DNA of 32,000 nucleotides from positions 1,650,001 through 1,682,000 of the forward strand of contig NC_002937.3 of NCBI RefSeq assembly GCF_000195755.1, written 5' to 3'. This DNA is from Nitratidesulfovibrio vulgaris str. Hildenborough. Lineage in GTDB: Bacteria; Desulfobacterota; Desulfovibrionia; Desulfovibrionales; Desulfovibrionaceae. The number at the start of each line of letters is the position of its first letter. Positions within the stretch are counted from its first letter, which is position 1. The notes under the pieces were generated by a model. The model ran no database searches. It was not told the DNA's origin and worked only from the letters and a program-made list of their open reading frames with translations. The position numbers and the translations under genes were made by a program. Of this stretch, positions 8,357-32,000 are shown piece by piece.

Positions 8357-9217
8357 TCACAAAAGATGCTGATATACCCGTATGCCATGACCCTTCAGCT
8401 GTTCGAAGGCCGCTTCGGCATCTTCACGCCTCCTGAAGAGGGCGAAGACGCTCGCGCCGCTACCGCTCATGAGGGCGGCTGCCGCGCCATGTCGCAACAA
8501 GGCTTCCTTGAGCGACCGCAGCTCCGGGTGAGACGCGAAGACCACCGGTTCGAAGCTGTTATGGAGCCATGACTCGCGGGAGAACGAGTTTCTATCCGCA
8601 ACCCCCCCCGTTGTCAAGCAACCACGCACGCGGAGTTGTTTTTCTTCGGCAGCATCCAGCGCGCCGTAGGCCCATGCCGTGGAGACCTGTACCTGCGGGC
8701 AGGCGAGAAGCAGGGTGAATCCCTTGTACGGCCATGCCACAGGGGTGATGATCTCGCCAATGCCGCTGGCACGGCACGGGACCGCATGGATGAAGAACGG
8801 CACGTCGGCTCCGATGCGGGCCGCCAGTCTGCATAGCGTCTCTCTTCCGAGGGGATGCGGGGCGATGGATTCGAGGTGGTTCAGGATTGCAGCGGCGTTG
8901 GCACTGCCGCCTCCCAGTCCTGCCCCATGCGGAACGCCTTTTCGCAACTCGACGCGAAGAGGCGGGCGGAATCCGGAGGCTTCGGCATAGGCGTCGTAGG
9001 CGCGGGTGACCGTGTTCCGTGTCGGGTCGATGCCCTGAATGGCACACGTCACAGTTATTCCGGGAGCATCGCCAACCGTCACCACCAGTTCGTCGTGCGG
9101 TTCCTCCAGCGGAAGGAAGAGGCTGTCGATTTCGTGATAGCCGTCGTCACGGCGCGACGTGATATGGAGGTCGAGATTGACCTTGCACCCGGAACGGAGC
9201 GTCACCGCGTCGTTCAT
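8357..9217 (-). CDS. ispE: 4-diphosphocytidyl-2-C-methyl-D-erythritol kinase
   Basis: The start at ATG 9217 ([19 protein letters not shown]) overlaps the hslV stop as ATGA, with GGAGA upstream. The GHMP-kinase motif [16 protein letters not shown] is present. The track start at 9268 lies inside hslV. Confidence 0.85.
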
Positions 9218-9759
9218 GCCTGTGTCTCCGCCGATTCGACGGTGAGGTGGTCGTTGGTGAAGACGCATATCTCGCCTGCGATGCGCATGGCTTCACGGGC
9301 GATGGTCTCCGCATCGAGTTGCGTGTGGCGGGCGAGTGCGCGGGCTGCGGCAAGGGCATAGGGGCCGCCGCTACCTATGGCGGCGATGCCGTCATCCGGT
9401 TCGATGACATCCCCGTTGCCCGAGAGCACGAGGATGTGTTCGTTGTCGGCCACAAGCAGCATGGCTTCGAGTCGGCGCAGATACTTGTCCTTGCGCCACG
9501 ACTTGGCCATCTCCACGGCGGCGCGGACAAGGTTGCCCCTGTGTTCTTCAAGCTTGGCCTCGAAATGTTCGAACAGCGTGAAGGCATCGGCCGTGGAACC
9601 CGCAAAGCCTGCGACCACCCGTCCGTTGTAGAGACGGCGCACCTTGCGCGCCGAGTGCTTCATGACGATGCTCTGGCCCATGGTCACCTGACCGTCACCT
9701 GCGATGGTGACACCCTGGGCACCCCGCACTGCGAGAATGGTCGTTCCCTTGAGTTCCAT
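9214..9759 (-). CDS. hslV: ATP-dependent protease subunit HslV
   Basis: 181 aa. [12 protein letters not shown], with the catalytic Thr after processing, then [23 protein letters not shown] and [15 protein letters not shown]. Confidence 0.9.
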
Positions 9760-9806
9760 GAATACTCCCGTATATCGTACGCCTGAAAGGGCGTGATGTC
9801 TGTCCG

Positions 9807-9842
9807 CACCACAAGAGGGCAGGGGGCTGCCCTCTTGTGGTG
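9807..9842 (-). terminator. Perfect 16-bp hairpin separating the M48 protease gene from hslV
   Basis: CACCACAAGAGGGCAG (9807-9822), loop GGGG, CTGCCCTCTTGTGGTG (9827-9842). It is adjacent to the 14-nt palindrome GGGCAGTACTGCCC (9847-9860). No clear U-tract. Confidence 0.45.
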
Positions 9843-9920
9843 TTCTGGGCAGTACTGCCCCATTCAGGGCTATTCCGTGGTGTTCAGTCTCAGTGCCGTG
9901 ACCTTTGAGGGGCGCGTGCT

Positions 9921-11366
9921 CTACCAGAACGCCTTTCTCTCCTGATAGGTGGCGGCGAACCGTTCGAGTTCGGCCATCTCTTCAGGTGTGCGCGCCTGTG
10001 CCCTGGCCTGTTCCTCGAATGATTCGGTCTTGTGCTTGTCGTTGCTGTACAGCGAACTGTAGGCAAGGTGGAGGTACGCCTTGAAAGGTTGCCCGGAAGC
10101 ACCCAGCACCCGCCCGTAGTAGTAGTGCACCTCGGCATCTTCGGGCAGTCGGCGAAGCACCTCGTCGAAATACTGGTACGACTTCTGGGGCTGCCCCGAA
10201 TCGGCAAGAAGCCGGGCATAGAAGAAGAGTGCCATGTAGTCGTCGGGGTTCATGAGCGTGGCGCGTTGCAGCATGGCTGCGGCCCGCCCCTTGTCACCCT
10301 TGGTGTAGTGGAACCTGCCGGCCTCGCGCCATATGAGCTGGTCTTTCGGGCTGCACTGCAATGCCTTGTCGAAGGCGGCAGTCGCTTCGGCGACCCTGTT
10401 CTGACGTGAAAAGAGTATGGCCTTGCCGAGTTGCGCGAGGCAATCCCCGGCGGGGGCATCGGCGAAAAGCCGTTCCGAGACCGCGGGGTCTCCATAGCGG
10501 GCCCTGCAAATGGTGCGCACCCTGAGGAACCGTGCGTCGTCATTGGGACGCGACCGGATATCTGCCGGAAGTGCGGCGATGCGCGCAGAAAGCGAGTTGA
10601 TGCGCTCGTTCACGGCCGGGTGGGTGCTCAGGTATGAGGGGATGTCGGTACCCATGGCCCATTGCTTCTTGCGAATCTTCTCGAAGGCGCCGACCATGCC
10701 TTCAGGACGGAAACCGGCGGCGATGAGATAGCGCAGGCCGATTTCGTCTGCCTCGGTTTCGTCCACACGGCTGTAGTTGAGCATGGCCGACTGCCCGGCG
10801 GCGATGGAACCCGCCATGGCCGCGCCCTTGCCCGACCCGCCGCCCAGAAACGCTCCGGCGAGTGCCCCCGCCATCGACAGGATGCTGGTGGTCTGCATCT
10901 TTTCGATGCGGCCCGCGATGTGCCGTTGCGTTGCGTGGGCGAGTTCATGGGCTAGCACTCCCGCCACCTCTGCTTCGTGGTCCATCTGCATGACAAGACC
11001 GGTATGGACGAAGATGAACCCGCCGGGGCTGGCGAAGGCGTTCAGCGAATTGTGCAGCAGGACATTGGTCTTGAAGTCGAAGGGCTGCGGCGGTGCCTGT
11101 TCAAGAAGGCGTGCAACGATGTCCTGAACGTAGACTTTGACTTCCGGGTCTTCGACCAGCGGCATCCGGGACTTGATGAGGACATCGAACTTCCTGCCGA
11201 GTTCCACTTCATCCTTGATGGTGAAACCGCCAAGCCCAAGAAACGCCCACGCCGGGGCAACCCCTTGAATGGTGAGCGCAAGTGCCAGCACAAAGGCCAG
11301 AATGCCCCGCGCACCGCGCCAGAAGGCGCAGCGGCGGGGCGTTTCGTTGCGAAGAAGTGTCGTCAT
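9921..11366 (-). CDS. Periplasmic M48 zinc metalloprotease with C-terminal TPR domain (BepA/YfgC-like)
   Basis: I chose the start at ATG 11366 ([12 protein letters not shown]...), which gives a signal peptide ending [14 protein letters not shown] is the HExxH zinc motif. The C-terminal half is TPR-like ([29 protein letters not shown]). The track start at 11549 lies inside cysS. Confidence 0.8.
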
Positions 11367-11371
11367 GGGCG

Positions 11372-12829
11372 TTACAGGACGTCCCAGACCGCTCCGGAAG
11401 GGGTGTCGCGCACTTCTATGCCAAGGGCGGCGAGTTCGTCGCGTATGGCATCGGCACGGGCGAAATCCTTCGCGGCACGGACGGACTTGCGTTCTTCCAG
11501 CAGGGCGTCGACCTTGGTCGTGTCGATGCCCTTGCGCCGGATGCGGCATTCCTTCAAATCACTCAGGAAGGCTTCGGGTTCACGCCCGAATACCCCGAGG
11601 ACCTTCATCCATTTTGCGACCAGACCATCCAGACGTTCGAGCAGGGCAAGGGTTTCTGCGCTCTTGCGAAGATTCTTGTCTTCAAGCAGGCGGTTCACCA
11701 GTCTGATGGTGCCGAACACGTGACCGAGGGCCGCAGCCGTGTTGAGGTCGTCTTCAAGCGCTTCGTCGAAGGCACGGTCGAGCGTGTCGAACTCTGCCGT
11801 CACGTCGGCAGGCAGAGGCGTGGCACTCCATTTGGAACGGCTGCGTTCGGTGCGGGCGAGCGAAAGGGCCTCGTAGATGCGCTTGAGGCTCTTTTCGGCC
11901 TCGTCCATGCTGTCGAAGGTGAAGTCGATGGGGCTGCGGTAGTGCTTGGTGAGCAGGAAGAAGCGCAGCACTTCCGGGAGATAGCCTTCGAGGATGTCAC
12001 GTATGGTCTTGAAGTTGCCGAGCGACTTGGACATCTTCTCCGCATCGACCTGCACGAAGCCATTGTGCATCCAGTAACGCACGAAAGGCTTGTCCAGCGC
12101 GGCTTCCGTTTGTGCTATCTCGTTCTCGTGGTGCGGGAAGATGAGGTCCTGCCCGCCGCCATGGATGTCCAGCGGCAGGGGCATGTGCTTTTCGCTCATG
12201 GCCGAGCATTCGATGTGCCAGCCCGGGCGTCCTTCGCCCCACGGGCTAGTCCAGCTCGGTTCGCCGGGTTTTGCAGCTTTCCACAATGCGAAATCAAGCG
12301 GGTCTTCCTTTTCCTCGCCGGGGGCGACGCGGGCGCCTGAACGCATGTCGTCGATGTCGCGTCCGGAGAGCTTGCCGTACTCGGGGAAGGAACGGACGCG
12401 GAAATAGACGTCGCCGGAAGGGGTGGCATAGGCCTTGCCCTTGGCGATGAGCTTTTCGCACAGCGCGATCATTTCGAGGATGTGGCCGGTAGCCTTGGGT
12501 TCGATGTCGGCGCGCAGCACGTTGAGGCGGTCCATGTCCTCATAGAAGGTGTCGATGTACTTCTCGGCGACCTGCTGGCTGGTGAGTCCCTCTTCATTGG
12601 CACGCTTGATGATCTTGTCGTCGACGTCGGTGAAGTTGCGGGCGAACGTCACATCAAGTCCGGTATGCCGCAGGTAGCGCACCAGCACGTCGAACACGAC
12701 GGCTGAACGGGCATGACCGATGTGGCAGAGGTCATAGGCGGTGATGCCGCACACGTACATGTTGACCTTGCCGGGTACGGCGGGCGTGAAAAGCTCTTTG
12801 CGGCGCGAGAGCGAGTTGTAGATCTGCAT
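11372..12829 (-). CDS. cysS: Cysteine--tRNA ligase
   Basis: Start at ATG 12829 with GGAGA RBS. Contains [14 protein letters not shown], the HIGH motif CHIGHARS and the KMSKS motif. The track start at 12946 runs into rpiB. Confidence 0.92.
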
Positions 12830-12845
12830 GGCGTCTCCGGAAAAA

Positions 12846-22297: not shown

Positions 22298-23668
22298 GTG
22301 GCCAAGGTCCGAGAGACGTACGTTTGCAGTGCATGTGGTGCCAATACCCCGCAATGGCGAGGGCAATGTCCCACCTGCAAGGCATGGAACACTCTTGACG
22401 CAGTGACCGTCGCGCGTGAAACGCGCAGCGGCGTGCGGCGACAGGGGGCACCTGATTCGGTGCGCCCACGGCCTTTGCGCGACGTGAGCGATGAGGGCGG
22501 AAGCCCCTTCGGTACCGGGCTTGAAGCCCTCGACCGTGTGCTCGGTTCCGGCCTTGTGCCGGGTGCCGCCATCCTTTTCGGTGGTGAGCCGGGGATAGGC
22601 AAGTCGACGCTTCTTCTGCAGGTCGCCGGGGCTGTGGCAGCCAGCGGGCGCGATGTGCTCTACCTGTCAGGTGAGGAGTCGCTCACACAGCTCAAGGGAC
22701 GTGCAGAACGTCTCGGGGTGCTGCACGAAAGGCTTCTCGCCGTGGCGACATCGCGTGTCGAGGACGTCTTCTCCGTTCTTGAGAGTGGCACCCCGCCAGC
22801 CCTTCTCGTACTCGACTCGGTGCAGACGCTCACATCCGACCTCGCCGAGGGACTGCCCGGCAACGTCAGTCAGGTGCGCGCCGTCGCCACCGAGGTCGTC
22901 GACCGTTGCAAGCGCGCCGGGACAGCCGTCCTGCTGGTCGGGCATGTGACCAAGGATGGCAATCTCGCCGGCCCCCGTCTGCTGGAGCATATGGTCGATA
23001 CCGTCGTTTCTCTGGAAGGTGACCGACGCCAGATGTTCCGCCTGTTGCGGGTGCTCAAGAACCGCTTCGGCCCCAATCAGGAGTTGCTCGTCTTCCAGAT
23101 GGCACAGCGGGGGCTCGAGGTCGTTGAAGACCCCTCCACGTTCTTCCTTGGAGCACGCGACCCGGCCCTCAGTGGTACCGCCGTGGTGATGGCGGTTGAC
23201 GGGCAACGCCCCTTCGCCGTCGAGGTGCAGGCACTTGTCACCCGCAGCTATCTCGCCATACCCCGCCGTACCGGACTCGGCTTCGACGTCAACAGGCTGC
23301 ACCTGCTGCTTGCCGTGCTTGAGAAGCGGCTTCGCCTCAACTTCGGGCAGGTCGATATCTATGCCAAAATCGGCGGGGGGATGCGGCTTCAAGACCCCGG
23401 CATGGACCTCGCGCTTGTGGCTGCCGTGCTTTCATCCTTCTATGATGTTGCGCTTCCTGAACGCGCTGTCCTGTGGGGGGAAGTCGACCTCAACGGGCAG
23501 GTGCGCCCCGTCGCGGCGCACGACATCCGCCTCGGGCAGGCTGCCCGCCTTGGCTATGGCCCTGTTCTTCATCCCGGCGAGGGGAGGGGGGCCGTGCCGA
23601 CCGTGGTCGAACTTCAGGCAAGGCTCTTCGGCAAGTCTGGCGCCCCCCGGCATAATCCCTCCGAGTAG
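22298..23668 (+). CDS. radA: DNA repair protein RadA/Sms
   Basis: GTG start. Contains the zinc finger CSACGANTPQWRGQCPTCKAWNT, Walker A GGEPGIGKSTLLLQ, the KNRFG motif (LKNRFGP) and a Lon-protease-like C-terminal domain. Confidence 0.92.
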   Translation: MAKVRETYVCSACGANTPQWRGQCPTCKAWNTLDAVTVARETRSGVRRQGAPDSVRPRPLRDVSDEGGSPFGTGLEALDRVLGSGLVPGAAILFGGEPGIGKSTLLLQVAGAVAASGRDVLYLSGEESLTQLKGRAERLGVLHERLLAVATSRVEDVFSVLESGTPPALLVLDSVQTLTSDLAEGLPGNVSQVRAVATEVVDRCKRAGTAVLLVGHVTKDGNLAGPRLLEHMVDTVVSLEGDRRQMFRLLRVLKNRFGPNQELLVFQMAQRGLEVVEDPSTFFLGARDPALSGTAVVMAVDGQRPFAVEVQALVTRSYLAIPRRTGLGFDVNRLHLLLAVLEKRLRLNFGQVDIYAKIGGGMRLQDPGMDLALVAAVLSSFYDVALPERAVLWGEVDLNGQVRPVAAHDIRLGQAARLGYGPVLHPGEGRGAVPTVVELQARLFGKSGAPRHNPSE

Positions 23669-23984
23669 AGATTCTTCCGCCCTCCGTATCTTTTGCCTGT
23701 AAGCATCCGTGAACGTCGCCCCTTTGCACACTGCTGAAGTGCATGTGTTGTCCCGGGCTGACTTCAGCGGATGCGGCTGTCTTCCGTGTGCGCCGTGGTG
23801 GGGTCCTCGATAATGATGCATGAGGATATGGCGCAGTATATTCCGTCCATGTATCCTTGCGTACGCGGCTATGGTATGATTGGATGTAATGGGATGGCGT
23901 GACGGGGCCATCGGGGCGCATGCCGAAACCGTCACATGTCGTCATTCTTTGCCGCGTACATCGCGCATAAGGTCCGGGGGGTCC

Positions 23985-25727
23985 ATGAGCGCAGTCGTAG
24001 AAATCGCCCGCGATGTCAGCACGCATCTTGTCGAAATCGGCAAGGGGCTTGCACGTGTGGTGCATGAACAGGAACAGACCTTCCTCGACCTTGGAGATGC
24101 CGTTCAGCGGATTGCCATGCAGGTTGGCGGCATCGGCGACGAGGCACGAGACCTTGTCAGGGTCACGTCGGGCGAGGCCATGTCACACATCCTCGAAGCG
24201 CTGGAGGGCGAGTTCGGTCGCATGGCCGAATTGTGCGCCACCGGTGTTCATGGTGGAGAACAGGCCCTGCTCGCCCGTACACGGGAACTCGTCCAGAACC
24301 TTGGCGTCTCTGTCCGTGAGTACGCACGCATCGTGCGGACCCTTCAGATGCTCGGCATCGCCACCCGCATAGAGAGTGCGCGTCTCGGTGCCGACGGACG
24401 TGGGTTCAGTACTCTGGCGGATGACGTCGAGAAGCTTGCGGGAAAGATCATCGAGTATTCGTCGAGCCTGCTTGAACAGGGGCGCGCACTCGATGTCACC
24501 ATCGCCGAGGCGGAGGGGCGGAGTCTTGAGATGGGGGCGAAACAGGATTCGTGTTCGCTTGCCGTTTCAGTAGGGCTGCTCGACGGACTCGACAACCTCA
24601 AACGCACGATGGCTTCGAGCAGGGCGTCGTCGTTGCAGGTCGAGGGATTGCTGGCAGACATCAACAAATCCATGCAAGGCCTCGTGGGGTCGCTCCAGTT
24701 TCACGACATCGTCCGGCAGCAGGTCGAGCATGTCGTCGAAGCCGTCGATGATGTCCTTGCCGGGCTGGCAAGGAACGCTGCCGCAGAATCCACTTCTGGT
24801 GCCGAGGAACTGGCTTTCGCCGCAGAGGTGTGCACCCTGCAGGAGTCCCAGACCCGTGCGGCTTCAGAGAGTCTCTCCACGGCTGTCGCCTCGTTGCGTT
24901 CCGAAATGCGCACCATCGCCAGCAGCGTCCGGCAGGTCGTTCTGGATGCCGGCGGAGGCTCGGGCGAGGGTGCGTCGGAATCGACAGCAGCAAAGGTCCT
25001 GGACGCCCTAGAGAACGAAGTCCGGGCAGCCGCGACCAGTATGCGCGAACTTGCCGTGCAGGGCGAAGACATGGGTCGCACCATGGAGATGGTCGCGTCC
25101 ACGGTTTCGGACATGACGGCGTTTCTCGCCGACATCGAGGATGTCGGATCGGAAATCGAGCTCATCGCCCTCAATGCGAGCATCAGTGCGGCGCATACGG
25201 GTGACAAGGGGAAGGCGCTCGGTGTGCTCGCAACGTCCATCCAGCGTCTTTCGCAGGATGCGGGGACACAGACGGTCGCCCTTGCAGACCTGCTGAGGAG
25301 CATCGACACCGCAGCCGGGGAACTGAAGGCTCTGGCCCTGTCCTACCTTGACATGAGCAGGGTTTCTGCCGTCAAGGAGGAACTCGAGCGGCTGACGCTC
25401 GCCTTGCGCGAAGCAAGTGGCGAGGCTGAACGCCACTTCAGGGGCGTTGCCAGCAGTTGCGATGTGCTCGCGCGTGACATGGAAAGACGCGTGCAGGACA
25501 TCGCAGTGGACAGGCTCGTCTGCGCTGCGCTCGACAAGGGGGCTGAACGGTTCGCCGTGGTGGCCGCCAAGGCGCGGCGAGGGGTTCCGGCCGGGACGCA
25601 GGTGCCGCGCGAGCGCATGAAGCATATGCATCAACGTTACACCATGCAGCAGGAACGCGTGCTGCATGGCAGGCATGTCGGCGAGTCGACCGACGATGGC
25701 ATGGGCGACAACATCGAACTGTTCTGA
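23985..25727 (+). CDS. Soluble chemoreceptor-like protein with two MCP signalling (hairpin-tip) modules
   Basis: Start at ATG 23985 (MSAVVEIARD), 5 nt after GGGGGG. The track start at 23880 adds an Arg/Cys-rich extension. There is no TM-length hydrophobic stretch. Tip-like copy 1 is RIESARLGADGRGFSTLADDVEKLA. Tip-like copy 2 is LIALNASISAAHTGDKGKALGVLATSIQRLSQ. The protein lies directly upstream of cheY-cheA-cheR-cheB. Confidence 0.75.
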   Translation: MSAVVEIARDVSTHLVEIGKGLARVVHEQEQTFLDLGDAVQRIAMQVGGIGDEARDLVRVTSGEAMSHILEALEGEFGRMAELCATGVHGGEQALLARTRELVQNLGVSVREYARIVRTLQMLGIATRIESARLGADGRGFSTLADDVEKLAGKIIEYSSSLLEQGRALDVTIAEAEGRSLEMGAKQDSCSLAVSVGLLDGLDNLKRTMASSRASSLQVEGLLADINKSMQGLVGSLQFHDIVRQQVEHVVEAVDDVLAGLARNAAAESTSGAEELAFAAEVCTLQESQTRAASESLSTAVASLRSEMRTIASSVRQVVLDAGGGSGEGASESTAAKVLDALENEVRAAATSMRELAVQGEDMGRTMEMVASTVSDMTAFLADIEDVGSEIELIALNASISAAHTGDKGKALGVLATSIQRLSQDAGTQTVALADLLRSIDTAAGELKALALSYLDMSRVSAVKEELERLTLALREASGEAERHFRGVASSCDVLARDMERRVQDIAVDRLVCAALDKGAERFAVVAAKARRGVPAGTQVPRERMKHMHQRYTMQQERVLHGRHVGESTDDGMGDNIELF

Positions 25728-25753
25728 ACGGGCTTCGGACGCCCGGAGGCACT

Positions 25754-26116
25754 ATGAGCAAACTGATCATGTCCGTCGATGATTCTGCTAGTATCCGTCA
25801 GATGGTGGGCTTCACACTCCGGAATGCCGGTTACGAGGTCATAGAGGCCTCGGACGGCAAGGACGCGCTGGGCAAGCTCTCCGGCCCGGTGAAGATGGTC
25901 ATCACCGACCTGAATATGCCCAACATGGATGGTATCGAGCTCATAAGGCGCATACGGGCCACGCCTGCCTACAAGTTCATTCCCGTGGTCATGCTCACCA
26001 CCGAATCCCAGGCGGCACGTAAACAGGAAGGCAAGGCAGCCGGGGCCACGGGGTGGATAGTCAAGCCGTTCAAACCCGAGCAGTTGCTGGCTGTCGTGCA
26101 GAAGCTGCTAGGCTAG
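25754..26116 (+). CDS. cheY: Chemotaxis response regulator CheY
   Basis: 120 aa single REC domain. It has SVDDS, the phospho-acceptor context MVITDLNMPNMDG, and MLTTE...IVKPF. Confidence 0.9.
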   Translation: MSKLIMSVDDSASIRQMVGFTLRNAGYEVIEASDGKDALGKLSGPVKMVITDLNMPNMDGIELIRRIRATPAYKFIPVVMLTTESQAARKQEGKAAGATGWIVKPFKPEQLLAVVQKLLG

Positions 26117-26183
26117 CGCATGGCTGTCGCTGCCGTATGTCTGCCGTGATGCGTCAGAGGCGGCAGCACAATACCACGGGGGA

Positions 26184-28310
26184 ATGATCGTGCAGGATGA
26201 ACTCAACCGTCAGGCGTTCGTCGAAGAGGCGCAAGACCTGCTGGCCGAACTTGAGACGGCGTTGCTTGAAATCGAGGAACGTCCCGAAGACAGGTCGCTC
26301 GTCGACCGCATTTTCCGGGCCATGCACACGATCAAGGGGTCGGGGGCGATGTTCGGCTTCGACGACATCGCGTCCTTCACCCATGATGTGGAGAGTGTCT
26401 TCGACAAGGTTCGCAATGGTGAGATGGAGTTGTCTCCGGAACTGCTCGATCTTACGCTGAAGTCGCGTGACCATATCGCCTACCTTCTGCAGTGTGCCAC
26501 GAAAGGCCTCGCCGTCGACGTCTCCATGTCCGCCGACCTCACGCAGGCTCTCCGGGCCCTGCTGCCGGGTGATGACCACGCGTCCGCGTCCCCTGCCGAT
26601 GAGATGCCGTCGTCCGGTGAGGTCGAAGGTCCCCGGCGGACCTACCGTGTGCGCTTCAAGCCGCATCCGCAACTCTTCCTCTCGGGCACGAACCCTCTGG
26701 GGCTGGTGCGCGAGATACAGGACCTGGGGCGTTCGAAGCTCTTCGTCCATTTCGGTGACGTGCCAGCCCTCGATGAACTCGACCCGGAGCAATGCCATGT
26801 GTGGTGGGATGTGTTGCTCACCACCGATAGTGATGAAGCCGCCATCCGTGACATCTTCCTCTTTGTCGAGGACGATGCGACCGTTGATGTGCGGCTCATC
26901 GACGAGGCGAACCTGCTTGAACAGGACGGTGCCTACAAGCGGCTTGGCGAGATTCTGCTTGAACGGGGCGATGTGGCGACCGAAGACCTGCGGCGGGTGC
27001 TGGAGGAGCAGCGTCCCATTGGCGAACTGCTCGCCGAGGCAGGCATCGTCACCCCTGATCAGGTCGCTTCCGCGCTGGCGGAGCAGAAGACGGTGCGCGA
27101 ACTGCGCCGCAGCCGCACCGAAGACGGGGACAAGCCCGCCGAAAAGGCGGGAGACGCCGGGGCGAGCATTCGCGTCTCTGCTGCCAAGCTCGACTATCTA
27201 GTCGATCTCGTAGGTGAACTTGTCATCGTGCAGTCCCAGATCGCGCGTATGGCGCACGAGCATCCCGCCCCCGGCATGTTGAGCCTCGTCGAAGCCCTCG
27301 AAAGGCTCAGCGACGACCTGCGCGACACGACGCTGGGTGTGCGCATGCTGCCCATAGGAACCACGTTCAGCCGTTTCAGACGGCTGGTGCGCGACCTCGC
27401 CGGAGAATTGGGCAAGAGCGTCGAACTCGTCACGCTCGGAGGCGAGACGGAACTGGACAAGACCGTCATAGAGCGACTGGGCGACCCGCTGGTGCATTGC
27501 CTGCGCAACAGCCTCGACCATGGTGTGGAATCGCCGGAACGCCGTCTGGCAGCCGGGAAGAGCGCCACGGGGCGCATCACGCTGGCAGCCGCTCACGCTG
27601 GCGGCGAGGTGCTGGTGACCATTTCGGATGATGGTGCGGGCATCGATGCCGAAAGAATCTATCAGGCTGCCCTGCGCAAGGGCATCATTGCCCCCGAGGT
27701 CGACCTTTCCACCCGGCAGAAGCTGGAACTCATCTTCGCGGCAGGCTTCTCCACTGCGGAGAAGGTGACCAGCGTCTCGGGGCGCGGCGTCGGCATGGAT
27801 GTGGTGAAGCGAGCCATCGAGAGCCTGCGCGGGCGTATCGAACTGGAGAGCACGCCGGGCAAGGGGACAGTCATCACCATACGGCTGCCGCTCACGCTTG
27901 CCATCATCGACGGGCTTCAGGTTCGCGTGGGGGACGAGTCCTACATCATTCCGTTGCCCCATGTGGAAGAGTGCGCCGAACACAATACGCCCGACCATGT
28001 CGACGGGCGACAGCGCATCATCAACCTGCGGGGTGACATCGTGCCGTTCATACGCTTGCGCGATGTCTTCCGGGTTCCGGGTGTCTCTCCGGGCATGGAA
28101 CAGCTTGTGGTGGTGAACGCGCTCGGAAGCCGATTCGGGCTGGTTGTCGACTGCGTCATCGGAGAGCACCAGACGGTCATCAAGAGTCTTGGCAAGGTCT
28201 ACAAGGACATTCCGGGCATTTCCGGCGCGACCATTCAGGGGGACGGCAGCATGGCACTGATCATCGACGTGCCGGGACTCGTCCATACCGCAGCGCTTGA
28301 GGCCGCATGA
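26184..28310 (+). CDS. cheA: Chemotaxis histidine kinase CheA (Hpt, atypical middle region, dimerisation, HATPase, CheW-like P5)
   Basis: 708 aa. P1 is FRAMHTIKGSGAMFG (His codon 26325-26327). P3 is IRVSAAKLDYLVDLVGELVI. P4 carries DPLVHCLRNSLDHG, DDGAGID and GRGVGMDVV. P5 is LAIIDGLQVRVGDESYIIPL...ALIIDV. Residues about 130-310 are not a canonical P2. Confidence 0.92.
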   Translation: MIVQDELNRQAFVEEAQDLLAELETALLEIEERPEDRSLVDRIFRAMHTIKGSGAMFGFDDIASFTHDVESVFDKVRNGEMELSPELLDLTLKSRDHIAYLLQCATKGLAVDVSMSADLTQALRALLPGDDHASASPADEMPSSGEVEGPRRTYRVRFKPHPQLFLSGTNPLGLVREIQDLGRSKLFVHFGDVPALDELDPEQCHVWWDVLLTTDSDEAAIRDIFLFVEDDATVDVRLIDEANLLEQDGAYKRLGEILLERGDVATEDLRRVLEEQRPIGELLAEAGIVTPDQVASALAEQKTVRELRRSRTEDGDKPAEKAGDAGASIRVSAAKLDYLVDLVGELVIVQSQIARMAHEHPAPGMLSLVEALERLSDDLRDTTLGVRMLPIGTTFSRFRRLVRDLAGELGKSVELVTLGGETELDKTVIERLGDPLVHCLRNSLDHGVESPERRLAAGKSATGRITLAAAHAGGEVLVTISDDGAGIDAERIYQAALRKGIIAPEVDLSTRQKLELIFAAGFSTAEKVTSVSGRGVGMDVVKRAIESLRGRIELESTPGKGTVITIRLPLTLAIIDGLQVRVGDESYIIPLPHVEECAEHNTPDHVDGRQRIINLRGDIVPFIRLRDVFRVPGVSPGMEQLVVVNALGSRFGLVVDCVIGEHQTVIKSLGKVYKDIPGISGATIQGDGSMALIIDVPGLVHTAALEAA

Positions 28311-29209
28311 TGGGACAGGGGGTATCGGAAGGTATGATACAGGGGCCGCCGGAAAGGGGAGGGGGCGATGGCGCGCCTTTCAGACCGAAGAGCATGACGC
28401 CCAAGGTGTTCGAGCGTATGAGTCGCTACGTGTATGAACAGGTCGGCATCAAGCTCACCCCTGCCAAGCGCATCATGCTCGAGGCGCGTTTGCAGAAGCG
28501 CCTTCGTACTCTCGGGTTCGATTCCTATGAGCAGTACGCCGAGTACCTCTTCACTGCGCGAGGGCAGCAGGAGGAGTTGCAGCAGTTCATCGATGTGGTG
28601 ACCACGAACACCACCGAGTTCTTCCGCGAGGGCAGGCACTTCGAGTTGCTGGCGCAGAAGGTGCTGCCCCGCTGGCGTTCGCAGTTCGGTACCTCGCGTG
28701 CCATGCAGATATGGAGCGCGGGCTGCTCGTTCGGCATGGAACCCTATACACTGGCCATGGTGCTTGCTGACTTTGCCGAGCGCAATTCGGGGTTCGTCTT
28801 CTCTGTGCTTGCCACCGACATCTCCGCCCGGGCGCTGCAACATGCCCAGCGTGGCATCTATGACGAAGAGCGGGTGGAGAGTATCCCGGAATCGTTCCGC
28901 AAGCGTTTTCTGCTGCGCAGCCGAGAAAGGGCCAGAAAACTGGTACGCATCGCCCCGGAGATACGGCATCTGGTCACCTTCCAGCGGCTGAACTTCATGG
29001 AGGACTTCTCGTTCAGAACCCCCATGGACGTCATCTTCTGCCGCAACGTGATCATCTATTTCGACAAGCCGACGCAAGAGCGGTTGTTCTCGCGTTTCTG
29101 CGAAAGCCTGCGACCGGGGGGGTATCTTTTCATCGGTCATTCCGAGAGCCTGACGGGCATGTCACTGCCCCTCGAAGCCCAGGCTCCCACCGTATACAGG
29201 AAGGTGTAG
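28307..29209 (+). CDS. cheR: Chemotaxis protein methyltransferase CheR
   Basis: The ATG overlaps the cheA stop as ATGA. Contains [10 protein letters not shown], the SAM-binding [29 protein letters not shown] and [10 protein letters not shown]. An alternative internal start lies at 28394. Confidence 0.9.
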
Positions 29210-29211
29210 CC

Positions 29212-30285
29212 GTGGCGCGCCCTTGCCGTGTCCTCATCGTCGACGATTCCGCCCTTGTCAGGCAGACTCTGGCCGACCTCCTTTCCGCAGACCCCGGCAT
29301 CGAGGTGGTGGGCACCGCCTCCGACCCATTCGTGGCTGCCAAGCGCATGGAGGCGGTGGTGCCCGACGTCATCCTGCTCGATATCGAAATGCCACGGATG
29401 GACGGGCTTACATTCCTGCGAAAGATCATGACCCAGCATCCCCTACCGGTGGTCATCTGCTCTTCGGTGACGGAGCAGGGGGCCGAGGCCACGTTCAAGG
29501 CCATGGAATACGGCGCGGTGGAGGTCATCACCAAACCTCGCCTCGGCACCAAGAGGTTTCTGGAGGAGTCGAGCATCCGCATCTGTGATGCCGTGAAGGC
29601 CGCGGCGCGGGCACGCCTGCACAGGCTTGGGCACCGTACGCGCGATGTCGCCCCCAAACTGACGGCAGATGCCATGTTGCCGGGCCCCACCAACTTCACG
29701 CGGGTGCAGACCACTGAGAAGGTCGTGGTCGTAGGCGCTTCGACAGGTGGCACGGAGGCCCTTCAAGTGTTCCTTGAAGCCATGCCGCCGGATGCGCCTC
29801 CCATAGCCATCGTCCAGCATATGCCGGAACACTTCACCGGAGCCTTTTCGCGCCGCCTTGACGGCATCTGCCGTATCCGGGTGCGCGAAGCGGAGGACGG
29901 AGACATCATGGCGCGGGGTCAGGCACTCATCGCCCCCGGTAGCAGCCACATGTTGCTCAAGCGCAACGGCTCGCGCTATACGGTGGAGGTCAAGGACGGC
30001 CCCCTCGTGAGACGGCACCGTCCCTCTGTCGATGTGCTGTTCCGGTCGGCTGCGCGCTATGCCGGGGCCAATGCGGTCGCCGCCATCCTCACGGGGATGG
30101 GCGATGACGGCGCGGCGGGCATGAAGGAACTGCACGACATGGGGGCCCATACCATCGCGCAGGATGAGGCGACGTGCATCGTCTTTGGCATGCCCCATGA
30201 GGCCATCAGGCTGGGTGGCGTCGACAGGGTGCTGCCCCTTGACGCCATCGCACCCGCCGTGCTCAAGGCCTGCGCGGGTTCATAG
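29212..30285 (+). CDS. cheB: Chemotaxis response regulator protein-glutamate methylesterase CheB
   Basis: GTG start 2 nt after the cheR stop, with AGGAAGG upstream. The REC domain reads [11 protein letters not shown] and [12 protein letters not shown]. The esterase domain has [15 protein letters not shown] and TGMGDDGA. Confidence 0.92.
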
Positions 30286-30305
30286 ATACGCAAGAACAGG
30301 AGACC

Positions 30306-30965
30306 ATGATGAGTGACGAACCTAAGGGCGCGATACTGCAGCGCGACAAGCTCACCTACGCCATCGTACCCCGCACCCCGTGCGGTCTTCTCACCCCCGA
30401 CGTGCTTGATGCCGTGTCGCGGGTCTGCAGGAAGTACGAAGTGCCGATCATCAAGATCACATCCGGGCAGCGTCTGGCCCTTGTCGGCATGAAGAAGGAA
30501 GCCGTCGAACCCATGTGGGAAGAGCTTCGCCTTGACGTCGGACGTGCCGTAGAACTTTGCGTGCACTATGTGCAGGCGTGCCCCGGTACGGCGGTCTGCC
30601 GGTTCGGCCTTCAGGATTCCCTCGGCATCGGCGTGGCCATAGAAGAGGAATATGTCGGGCACGACTTCCCAGCCAAGGTCAAGTTCGGCATTTCGGGCTG
30701 TCCCTTCTGCTGTGGCGAAAGCTACCTGCGAGATGTAGGTCTCGTGGGCACCAAGAAGGGCTGGACGCTCATCGTGGGTGGCAATTCCGGCGGGCATCCG
30801 CGCATCGGCGATGTGCTTGCAGAAGAGCTTTCCACTGATGAGGCCAAGGGGCTGATACGTAAGTTCATGGAGTTCTATCGCGATAACTCGGGTAAACGGC
30901 TGCGTGTCTCCAAGTTCGTCGAGAAGACGGGCATCGAGGCCATACGGCAGGCGGTACTCGGTTAG
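30306..30965 (+). CDS. sir: Small assimilatory-type sulfite reductase (siroheme/[4Fe-4S] nitrite-sulfite reductase fold)
   Basis: 219 aa. The cluster/siroheme Cys motifs are CPGTAVC (C-x5-C) and CPFCC (C-x3-C). The size and sequence type match the low-molecular-weight assimilatory sulfite reductase described from D. vulgaris Hildenborough. AGGAG lies at 30298-30302. The second ATG at 30309 is an equally possible start. Confidence 0.85.
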   Translation: MMSDEPKGAILQRDKLTYAIVPRTPCGLLTPDVLDAVSRVCRKYEVPIIKITSGQRLALVGMKKEAVEPMWEELRLDVGRAVELCVHYVQACPGTAVCRFGLQDSLGIGVAIEEEYVGHDFPAKVKFGISGCPFCCGESYLRDVGLVGTKKGWTLIVGGNSGGHPRIGDVLAEELSTDEAKGLIRKFMEFYRDNSGKRLRVSKFVEKTGIEAIRQAVLG

Positions 30966-30969
30966 AATC

Positions 30970-30996
30970 AGGGGGGCTGCGGCCCCCTTCCTTTTT
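30970..30996 (+). terminator. Rho-independent terminator after sir
   Basis: AGGGGGGC (30970-30977), loop TGCG, GCCCCCTT (30982-30989), followed by CCTTTTT. It starts 5 nt after the sir stop. Confidence 0.75.
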
Positions 30997-31360
30997 GATG
31001 CCCCCTCGTGGGAGGGCCCCATGTCTGCGTGCCGTTTCCGCCAACCCGGCATCCCGTGCCGGTCCGTGGTCAGGATGTCATGCACTCCGGTGGACTGGCA
31101 GCTTGAGGGGTACTCGTGCATACGGTACGTCGTGCAGTCCCCATCAGTCCCCATGTAGGCCTACCCTGTGACACTGCTGGCAATCCCGTCCATGGGGGTG
31201 TGCGACCATCGCCGAAGCCGACCACGACATCGGGCACACAGGATATGAACGGGACTGTTGTACGCCCGGTCTCTGGCAGGCCAACGTTGTGAACCCGTCT
31301 GGTGTCGCGTGGATTTCGAGGCCTATGGAAGTCTGAACACGGCGGAGTCAGAACGTGAGG

Positions 31361-31705
31361 TCACGCCTTGGGGCGATGCCGGTAAAGCCTGACCTCGACA
31401 GGTTCGAGCGTTACAAGCCCCTCTTCGAGAATGGCCTCGACCTCTGGCATGAAAGCCTCTATACGCTCGGCACTGTCTATGATTTCGATGACAAGAGGAA
31501 GGCTTTCGGCCAGATGCAGCACACGTGCAGTGTGCAGGGTGCTGTTTGCCCCGAAACCGGCGAGGGCGCGTTGCATGGTCGCACCTGCAAGCTTCGCCTG
31601 CATGGCCTTTTCGATGATGACCGTATGCAGGGCACGGCCTTCATGCATGTCGTCCTCGGCGAAGTAGATGCGCAGACGTGTGGCTGTCCCCGATGGTGCG
31701 GGCAT
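31361..31705 (-). CDS. DUF190-family protein (commonly linked to crcB fluoride-resistance genes)
   Basis: Start at ATG 31705, 6 nt after AAGGAG. The product is 114 aa (MPAPSGTATRLRIYFAEDDMHEGRALHTVIIEKA...). It lies 44 nt downstream of crcB. The track start at 31840 overlaps crcB. Confidence 0.75.
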   Translation of the reverse strand: MPAPSGTATRLRIYFAEDDMHEGRALHTVIIEKAMQAKLAGATMQRALAGFGANSTLHTARVLHLAESLPLVIEIIDSAERIEAFMPEVEAILEEGLVTLEPVEVRLYRHRPKA

Positions 31706-31749
31706 GATTGGCTCCTTTGTGAATGCTGTTGGCTGGTTATGCGGTGAGA

Positions 31750-32000
31750 TCAGACCAGCCTGCCGAGTCCCGCGCCGAACCAGACGAGCATGATGCCCGC
31801 CACGGTCTGGCCGACGATGTACAGGGCCGCCTGTAGCCACATGTGCGATTGAAGCAGTACCATCCCTTCATAGGTCAGTGTCGAGAATGTGGTCAGCGAA
31901 CCCATGAATCCTGTCAGCAGTAGCAGACGCGCTTCGGGGGCGAAGGTTATCCTGTTTTCGAGTATCCCCCACACGAGGCCGAAGAGGAGGCTGCCGAGAA
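31750..32000 (-). CDS. crcB: Fluoride ion channel CrcB/FluC (5' end outside the window)
   Basis: The hydrophobic product contains GFMGSLTTFSTL, the conserved CrcB motif. The reading frame stays open from 31974 to the window edge (..LGSLLFGLVWGIL). Confidence 0.8.
   Translation of the reverse strand, partial: LGSLLFGLVWGILENRITFAPEARLLLLTGFMGSLTTFSTLTYEGMVLLQSHMWLQAALYIVGQTVAGIMLVWFGAGLGRLV

Follow-up and report, generated by a model that had tools for sequence, protein, structure and literature searches.

The window analyzed here is a stretch of 32,000 nucleotides of the main chromosome contig (C1) of Nitratidesulfovibrio vulgaris str. Hildenborough (D. vulgaris Hildenborough, DvH), and it contains an operon for a chemosensory (Che) system built around the kinase CheA1 (DVU1594). 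We consider it fairly likely that this operon is the core of a dispersed CheA1 system of the F7/F8-type class, probably modulated by cyclic di-GMP (c-di-GMP). Directly observed are the gene content, the orthology of a distantly encoded CheW, the presence and conservation of an MshEN_N module in the kinase and the family relations of the receptor. Judged by its predicted parts (a McpA-like receptor, its own CheY, an MshEN_N-type CheA, and CheR plus CheB), the system is a member of a widespread F7/F8-type class. The locus has already been annotated and mutated, and the c-di-GMP motif of its kinase is in the literature. New are the putative cognate CheW and pentapeptide-bearing methyl-accepting chemotaxis protein (MCP) at a distant site, and the placing of the receptor in a McpA-like family of very large size, which appears to accompany MshEN_N-type CheAs. 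The predicted side-by-side geometry of the two receptor hairpins and a CheZ-like hypothesis for the receptor are likewise proposed here.

All genes of the operon are on the plus strand; gene coordinates are window positions, while C1 coordinates refer to the contig. The operon encodes a soluble McpA-like receptor of 580 aa (23985..25727; two stretches matching Pfam MCPsignal), a single-domain response regulator CheY of 120 aa (25754..26116; Response_reg, 91.7 bits) and the kinase CheA1 (26184..28310), in which Pfam and NCBIfam models delimit P1, a region without Pfam assignment, MshEN_N, P3, P4 and P5. It continues with the methyltransferase CheR (28307..29209; Pfam CheR with 210.9 bits, and CheR_N), CheB (DVU1596; 29212..30285), which has an N-terminal receiver (Response_reg) and a methylesterase domain (CheB_methylest, 219 bits; NCBIfam CheB model, 440.8 bits, over its cut-off), and a sixth gene, sir. 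CheB has been detected in a biofilm proteome (PMC11784015). The junctions, re-read in the sequence, measure 26, 67, -4 (the cheR start overlaps the cheA stop in an ATGA), 2 and 20 nt, and both gene order and gaps agree with a preliminary description of this operon. The core of a Che pathway is present with CheY, CheR, CheB and a receptor with a signalling tip. A stand-alone CheW is absent from the window, as had been described: its sole CheW-domain match is P5 of CheA1 (C1:1677912-1678289).

CheA residues 245-319 match the DVU_1594 row of Supplementary Figure 3c of Wang 2016 (PMC5013675), apart from one G that is absent in the machine-read text, and the kinase is therefore CheA1. DVU1594 was named cheA1 in Ray 2014 (PMC3944678), where all three cheA genes were inactivated and only cheA3 (DVU2072) was required for soft-agar halos. 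The cheA1 insertion mutant formed wild-type motility halos and the cheA3 mutant was defective, which bears out the earlier view that this operon serves another function than the main flagellar chemotaxis. When CheA1 and CheA2 come into action was left by the authors for future exploration (PMC3944678).

The preliminary description had further taken the operon for a self-contained module that works without CheW, and this part is not supported. The receptor family can be recognized by two motifs, TRIESARLG and QFHDI(V/T/I)RQ, and a search with both in a species-level genome collection yields at least 541 loci. For gene-neighbourhood counts we took 80 related loci and read them where enough flanking DNA was available. 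The order receptor, (cheY), cheA, (cheW), cheR, cheB recurs among them in Desulfovibrionales, Geobacteraceae, Nitrospirota and Acidobacteriota. A single-domain cheW (163-329 aa) occurs in 25 of the 80 clusters, usually between cheA and cheR; the clusters concerned include those of Solidesulfovibrio, Desulfolutivibrio, Nitrospirota and some Geobacteraceae, and many of them have cheD divergently upstream. In the clade around DvH, which comprises Nitratidesulfovibrio, Oleidesulfovibrio, Halodesulfovibrio and many metagenome-assembled genomes (MAGs) of Desulfovibrionaceae, cheW is gone from the cluster and the other five genes are kept in tight order. The sole DvH cheD is located at 3.08 Mb (C1:3081579-3082178), away from the CheA1 operon.

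A genome-wide search for cheW paralogues and other che clusters, as the preliminary description had proposed, located four stand-alone CheWs (C1:661310, 1980940, 2038039 and 2157876) and the cheA2 and cheA3 clusters. The inventory further comprises three CheAs, 29 MCPs, three CheV-like proteins, one CheZ (C1:1537477-1538223), one CheX and one CheD. The in-cluster CheWs of the relatives score 175-215 bits (53-66% identity) against the CheW encoded at C1:661310-661831 (CheW_661325) and at most 130 bits against the three others. In an IQ-TREE phylogeny, CheW_661325 falls inside the clade of in-cluster CheWs with 98/97 support, next to the CheW of locus L096, whose gene sits directly upstream of a receptor-cheY-cheA cluster. 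In DvH this cheW follows an MCP gene, and the pair lies at C1:659201-661831, about 1.0 Mb from the operon; an MCP-cheW pair is found directly upstream of the receptor in loci L056 and L096. In a sample of one genome per genus of Desulfovibrionaceae (41 genomes), 14 genomes encode the receptor, and all 14 (DvH and 13 other genera) have a CheW of the CheW_661325 type, within the cluster in two of them and far away in others. Another of the stand-alone CheWs (C1:1980940-1981416; L105:4941-5417, minus strand) gives the best Pfam CheW match of the genome; its gene adjoins an mfd/TRCF-type helicase gene and has no che genes nearby.

The MCP that precedes CheW_661325 is 687 aa long, with two transmembrane (TM) segments and a periplasmic domain of the 4HB/HBM type. 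Four of its sites fit the methylation consensus, and its long, disordered tail closes with DFERY, which is a canonical pentapeptide (x[HFWY]xx[HFWY]). C-terminal tails of this kind are found in three of the 29 MCPs only, namely in this protein, in the cheA2-cluster MCP (DFERF) and in the soluble receptor (NIELF). The loop of the beta-subdomain of CheR1 has the same length as in the pentapeptide-dependent CheR of E. coli, and DvH CheR3 has a 4-residue deletion there. The simplest reading of these sequence data is that the CheA1 system is dispersed rather than CheW-free. Since the genes of one system can be scattered, it is misleading to call a cluster ‘CheW-less’ from the cluster alone.

CheA1 matches the Pfam models Hpt (66.3 bits), H-kinase_dim (43.8), HATPase_c (72.5) and the CheW-like P5 (96.7), all over their cut-offs. 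It carries a predicted MshEN_N c-di-GMP-binding module at aa 252-301 (26937..27086, plus strand), which consists of tandem MshEN_N-type motifs: RLGEILLERGDVATEDLRRVLEEQ, then R, then PIGELLAEAGIVTPDQVASALAEQ. NCBIfam model NF053729 matches this segment with 54.3 bits (cut-off 38) and also matches all 44 orthologous CheA segments tested, and a profile of the CheA segments finds in the PDB the c-di-GMP domains of Thermus PilF and V. cholerae MshE at 1e-20 to 7e-8. The MshEN_N consensus is composed of two tandem 24-residue motifs, RLGxx(L)(V/I)xxG(I/F)(L/V)xxxxLxxxLxxQ, and both motifs are kept in 68/68 cluster CheAs from four phyla. The module of DVU_1594 is already listed in Wang 2016 (PMC5013675), where the architecture is given as Hpt, CheY-binding, MshEN_N, dimerization, kinase and CheW domains; a CheA fragment of Aeromonas veronii (EKB11881) with the same architecture binds c-di-GMP with a Kd (dissociation constant) of 2.6 uM (supplement of the same paper). 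No later functional study of an MshEN_N-type CheA was found in the literature, the module is not mentioned in a 2023 survey of CheA architectures, and neither this survey nor a paper on Geobacter che genes contains anything specific to the CheA1 cluster. The input of the system, earlier described as not obvious from the sequence, is less obscure than that statement suggests, given the c-di-GMP module in the kinase and a likely partner MCP with a periplasmic 4HB-type domain. We regard the system as probably modulated by c-di-GMP, which would act on the kinase.

Between Hpt and MshEN_N, CheA1 has a segment (aa 141-250; 26604-26933) that is conserved in the orthologues (YRIRFKP...NPL.L..EL..LG...WWD). 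The P2/CheY-binding Pfam model gives no match in it at E<=0.1, and a word-based search with this linker region returns close relatives only. As a whole, CheA1 is closest to the CheAs of the delta-type clusters (680-720 bits), followed by the Aeromonas type (460-510 bits) and then by CheA2, E. coli CheA and CheA3. With 356 bits, E. coli CheA is no closer to CheA1 than DvH CheA2 is (357-437 bits).

The receptor belongs to a very large family. A profile search returns 1902 clusters at 50% identity with E<=1e-30, and the top 150 are nearly all full-length; the orthologues begin at the same ATG. Its MCPsignal match, split into two stretches, reaches 50.3 bits (cut-off 34.6) and is the weakest among the 29 MCPs of the genome. 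The receptor had been described as soluble, and we found no TM segment either: the maximal Kyte-Doolittle mean over 19 residues is 0.94, as compared to 2.57 for a membrane MCP of the same genome. The first motif, tip 1 (aa 120-155; 24342..24449, plus strand), reads LQMLGIATRIESARLGADGRGFSTLADDVEKL, is near to the canonical MCP hairpin tip and corresponds to the second MCPsignal match (profile positions 50-84, E 4.3e-5), its columns being invariant in 120 homologues. The motif S-L-Q-F-H-D-I-V-R-Q-Q-V-E-H-V (aa 236-250; 24690..24734, plus strand) contains nine residues that are invariant in 120 receptor sequences (Q238, H240, D241, I242, R244, Q245, Q246, E248 and H249). Tip 2 (aa 384-423; 25134..25253, plus strand), IEDVGSEIELIALNASISAAHTGDKGKALGVLATSIQRLS, is a divergent MCP tip that gives the best MCPsignal stretch. 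After a variable acidic linker, the protein ends in the conserved C-terminal peptide G-D-N-I-E-L-F (25704..25724, plus strand; family consensus GDNVELF), in which L579 and F580 never vary and N576 and E578 are kept in at least 90% of the same 120 sequences. Further invariant blocks are RE..FL.LG (29-37), LQ.SQ (285-289) and RYTME.ER..H (551-561).

Relatives outside the delta-type clusters were collected with the published Aeromonas CheA fragment as query. The loci of Aeromonas, Massilia, Methylococcales and others share one layout, as do those of a Pseudomonas sp. MAG, Ectopseudomonas and Sterolibacterium: McpA-like, cheY, cheA, one or two TM MCPs ending in DF(V/I/E)RF, cheW, cheR, cheD and cheB. 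Most of the cheAs in this layout carry MshEN_N-type motifs under a relaxed pattern, and the cheYs that occupy this position in the Aeromonas, Massilia and Methylococcales clusters share 55-62% identity with DvH cheY. The Aeromonas-type receptor is membrane-anchored and about 400 aa long, with a canonical tip, the sequence SLQFQDRVSQ (which gamma- and beta-proteobacterial McpA-like proteins have at the site of the DvH QFHD motif), a Y.T.E.R..H block and a C-terminal (D/E)(I/V)TFF. It aligns to the DvH receptor over hairpin 1 and the QFHD region, with 29% identity (E 1e-9), and the DvH protein thus looks like a McpA-like protein minus the membrane anchor plus a second hairpin. The A. veronii and DvH systems share the CheA architecture and the neighbourhood parts. 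They differ in the CheA module, where the DvH spacer is one residue long and motif 1 of the DvH type contains a conserved ERGD, and where binding of c-di-GMP was measured for the Aeromonas fragment, and in the receptor, which in A. veronii is anchored in the membrane, has one hairpin and ends in ITFF, whereas that of DvH is soluble, with two hairpins and NIELF. The McpA-like protein of Massilia mucilaginosa (L125), with 587 aa as against about 377 aa in the closely related L123 and L124, may represent an independent enlargement. In a genome scan with the gamma-proteobacterial McpA-like profile, generic MCP tips crowded out other matches, and neither P. aeruginosa nor V. cholerae was among the results.

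The same layout of parts is known from ancestral F7 systems (P. aeruginosa Che2, PA0173-PA0180; V. cholerae cluster III; S. oneidensis Che1), which share the gene order mcpA-like, cheY, cheA, cheW, pentapeptide MCP, cheR, cheD, cheB (Ortega 2020; PMC7184735). The C-terminus of the F7 McpA-like proteins is conserved but is not a pentapeptide (DIELF, EVELF, TVELF; Suppl. Table 12 of the same paper), McpA of P. aeruginosa binds none of the four CheR homologues of that species, McpA-like receptors are dispensable for F7 arrays, and F7 clusters contain cheY and lack cheZ (PMC7184735). The x(V/I)ELF ending (EVELF in VCA1088, NIELF in DvH, NVELF as family consensus) likewise does not fit x[HFWY]xx[HFWY] in the DvH family. 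Both kinds of system have their own cheY and no cheZ in the cluster, and coexist with a system that runs the flagellum. In contrast to F7, the DvH cheW, pentapeptide MCP and cheD are found at other loci, the pentapeptide MCP is of the TM 4HB type instead of an Aer2-like 36H PAS receptor (the PAS-haem Aer2), and the McpA-like protein is soluble with a second signalling hairpin. As Aeromonas is listed as lacking F7 in the supplement of Ortega 2020 (PMC7184735), the ITFF-type cluster belongs to another class, perhaps F8. Mutants in F8 kinases are affected in biofilm traits rather than in taxis (PMC11253619).

In the dispersed system that we favour, CheA1 and CheW would assemble into signalling complexes with two receptors, the membrane MCP and the soluble protein with two hairpins. 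The receptors would set the autophosphorylation of CheA1, and c-di-GMP bound to the MshEN_N module would modulate it as well. Phosphate would pass from CheA1 to CheB and to the CheY of the cluster, whose target would not be needed for soft-agar taxis, while CheR1 and CheB1 would adapt the pentapeptide-bearing MCPs. The sir gene, a syntenic neighbour that is probably co-transcribed, would probably have no part in signalling. That the dispersed parts are physical partners and that c-di-GMP affects the kinase is what we infer from these data, and so is the output.

Several observations weigh against this model. CheWs of the CheW_661325 type are also found in 13 of the 27 sampled genomes without the receptor, and the CheW from the cheA2 cluster is, on a long branch, another member of the clade that holds CheW_661325; the orphan MCP-cheW pair could for these reasons serve CheA2. 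The soluble receptor has no consensus methylation site. In the kinase, the spacer between the MshEN motifs is a single residue (R or K in DvH and 68/68 orthologues) as against five in MshE, and motif 1 reads ERGD, which puts Asp at a hydrophobic position and stands in place of a hydrophobic pair of MshE. As a side observation, the cheA2 cluster (MCP, CheW and CheA2; C1:2035941-2040713, outside the window) has neither CheR nor CheB, and its MCP ends in DFERF, similar to the DFERY of the orphan MCP at 659201. The three CheR and three CheB domains of the genome are encoded in the CheA1 cluster, in the cheA3 region, where the cluster has its own CheW, CheR and CheB, and in a CheB-CheR fusion at 512531-513877. 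In the last case, CheB-methylesterase and CheR lie in one very long frame (C1:512531-513877; 1815 aa open), as a fusion within a large multidomain protein. Because the cheA2 cluster contains a DFERF MCP, no CheR or CheB of its own and a CheW of the CheW_661325 clade, CheR1 and CheB1 may also serve the CheA2 system.

The best-surviving alternative is a truly CheW-independent system, in which the two-tip receptor couples directly to P5 of CheA1 in the cytoplasm and the distant MCP-cheW pair serves CheA2 or CheA3. The loss of cheW from the cluster throughout the clade nearest to DvH, next to five tightly kept genes, is consistent with it, and the two receptor tips are consistently diverged and could make an asymmetric interface. 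The occurrence of this CheW type in genomes without the receptor and the paralogous MCP-CheW module in the cheA2 cluster point in the same direction. However, every sampled genome with the receptor retains an orthologue of the cluster-type CheW, and more distant members of the system class encode CheW in the cluster. Moreover, no described chemosensory array is known to lack a CheW-type adaptor. We consider CheW independence unlikely.

The sixth gene, sir (DVU_1597; 30306..30965, plus strand), encodes a protein of 219 aa with a NIR_SIR_ferr half-domain (50.2 bits) and a NIR_SIR 4Fe-4S/siroheme domain (90.2 bits), and a functional role in the pathway might be imagined, for example in linking the sulfite/nitrite redox state to signalling. 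Its start is 20 nt from cheB without a terminator between them, and an intrinsic-terminator-like hairpin with a T-run (30970..30996, plus strand; 8-bp stem with 6 GC pairs) follows 5 nt past its stop, as had been described. This is the sole strong terminator-like site in a scan of 23400-31500, and given the short gap and a terminator only after sir, the gene is probably co-transcribed with the operon. The cheB-sir adjacency is kept in nine related loci of three genera (Nitratidesulfovibrio, Oleidesulfovibrio and Halodesulfovibrio). It is found in these nine only, and sir is therefore not a core part of the system; no sir follows cheB in most related clusters, even in close Desulfovibrionaceae that share the radA-receptor synteny. 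The product, Dv-alSir, is a small, free-standing siroheme sulfite reductase of the assimilatory type that has been purified and studied (PMC3448663), and no sensory domain or interaction motif is evident in it. A signalling role of sir is accordingly quite improbable.

The fold of the receptor bears on another alternative, namely an F9-type system like cluster I of V. cholerae with a DosM-like rod that has a tip at each end and forms a double-layered cytoplasmic array. Both have a soluble receptor with two signalling domains per chain and without a sensory domain, and in both cases disruption of the kinase gives no phenotype under standard conditions (Briegel 2016; PMC7534058, PMC9321776). We analyzed covariation in 276 sequences (Meff 185). 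One antidiagonal, at i+j = 267-274, marks a turn around residue 136 in tip 1, and a second one, at i+j = 807-816, a turn around residue 407 in tip 2. A third signal (i+j = 535-546) brings together helices 138-264 and 270-403, as well as helices 1 and 4, and parallel diagonals are found at j-i = 249-275. This pattern of peaks suggests four helices of about 130 residues each, arranged down-up-down-up with both tips at the same end, and the receptor looks like a single-chain mimic of an MCP dimer (a pseudo-dimer) rather than a DosM-type rod. AlphaFold2 (AF2) models of the receptor are all-helical and confident in both runs (pLDDT 83.8 and 87.9, pTM 0.61 and 0.71, respectively), with a break in the tip-2 helix at 404-409 in run 1 and at 405 in run 2. 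A hairpin at 86-90, suggested by a helix 91-236 that looks unbroken in AF2/DSSP, was considered and rejected: covariation is silent at i+j ~176, as opposed to a clear signal at 267-274, and in run 2 even the undisputed tip 2 has a break of no more than one residue. Foldseek of the receptor against the PDB gave generic MCP and coiled-coil matches only, none at E<=0.001.

Two MCP tip motifs in one soluble chain are what an F9-type receptor would have, and four helices of about 130 residues also fit a 38-nm rod if the dimer is antiparallel. Covariation is blind to the difference between contacts within and between chains, and an antiparallel swapped dimer could formally also be compatible with it. 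However, the coupling at i+j = 535-546 and j-i = 249-275 places tip 1 next to tip 2 and not at opposite ends, which rules out a parallel homodimeric rod, and the linker at 265-269 is variable in length and proline-rich in relatives. The pTM of 0.71 for the AF2 monomer suggests a compact bundle, and both QFHD and the x(V/I)ELF ending connect the receptor with McpA-like proteins and not with DosM. A triple-CheW protein (CheW3), which marks the F9 class (PMC9321776), is absent from DvH, where each of the ten CheW-domain matches is a single domain in a separate protein. The part of the supplement of the F9 survey that was accessible does not mention Desulfovibrio or Geobacter. An F9-type assignment is for these reasons very improbable.

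A more speculative idea concerns the QFHD motif. McpA-like receptors, the two-hairpin form included, may be phosphatases of phosphorylated CheY (CheY-P) built into a receptor, a possibility that we regard as doubtful yet worth stating. D241 and Q245 of the receptor, both among the invariant residues, are spaced as D143 and Q147 of CheZ. In hhalign, receptor profiles place the motif on FQDLTGQ of a 24-sequence CheZ alignment (E 0.0031 for the delta family, 0.0027 for the gamma family), marginally better than four reversed and 24 block-shuffled controls (E 0.01-0.6); the single receptor sequence gives E 0.16. Pfam CheZ (PF04344) does not match the receptor at E<=10 in the genome scan, and weak matches are found in nine of 45 members of the receptor family (best 0.0063, none over the cut-off). 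The receptor resembles CheZ (E. coli b1881) in its long helical bundle, the exposed F-(Q/H)-D-x-x-x-Q, the flexible acidic linker and a short conserved C-terminal peptide that ends in an aromatic residue, but the peptides themselves differ (DDLLxxLGF in CheZ, GDNVELF in the receptor). By analogy, F-(Q/H)-D-x-x-x-Q, which lies on the return helix from the tip, might act as D143/Q147 of CheZ do, and x(V/I)ELF on its flexible linker might tether the CheY of the cluster, as the C-terminal peptide of CheZ does. In an actinobacterial locus with the same system parts (L183, Dactylosporangium roseum; 9036-12834), a QFQD-type receptor match (9001-9903) and cheY lie in one open reading frame (ORF) of 415 aa (9036-10283). 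The ORF resembles a receptor-cheY fusion, which would be relevant to a direct relationship between McpA and CheY.

A redundant or condition-specific flagellar chemotaxis pathway, with CheY acting on the motor, is barely credible: the operon has a full set of excitation and adaptation genes, its CheY is a single receiver domain as in motor-binding CheYs and the literature covers one medium and assay type only (PMC3944678), but the wild-type halos of the cheA1 mutant next to the defective cheA3 mutant argue against it, 26 of the 29 MCPs are in a different length class without C-terminal tails and by inference fit the cheA3 cluster, and the related systems of the F7 (stage 1/2) and F8 classes have no control over taxis (PMC7184735, PMC11253619).

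The flanks of the operon are as described before, with radA upstream and DUF190 and CrcB genes downstream on the minus strand; a DUF3426 gene also lies upstream. The 316-nt region 5' of the receptor gene contains no consensus for sigma-54 or sigma-28. An ORF of 130 aa without Pfam match (31355-31747, plus strand) is fully antisense to the DUF190 gene (31361-31840, minus strand) and is therefore probably not a gene.

The ancestral F7/F8-type systems, with their McpA-like receptors, are found in model pathogens as well as in environmental bacteria. The class, which comprises over 500 loci and some 1900 sequence clusters, reaches well beyond gamma-proteobacteria, and a McpA-like receptor goes together with a CheA carrying a c-di-GMP-type module in each delta-type cluster examined (68 CheAs). 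If the phosphatase hypothesis were true, it would account for clusters with cheY yet never cheZ, cheC or cheX, for the dispensability of McpA in F7 arrays and for a conserved C-terminus that binds no CheR. Combined with the binding of c-di-GMP by CheA, this would make the system one in which a second messenger is the input that sets CheY-P levels. DvH is a genetically tractable sulfate reducer, and work on the CheA1 system could connect the biofilm decisions of such bacteria with chemosensory signalling.

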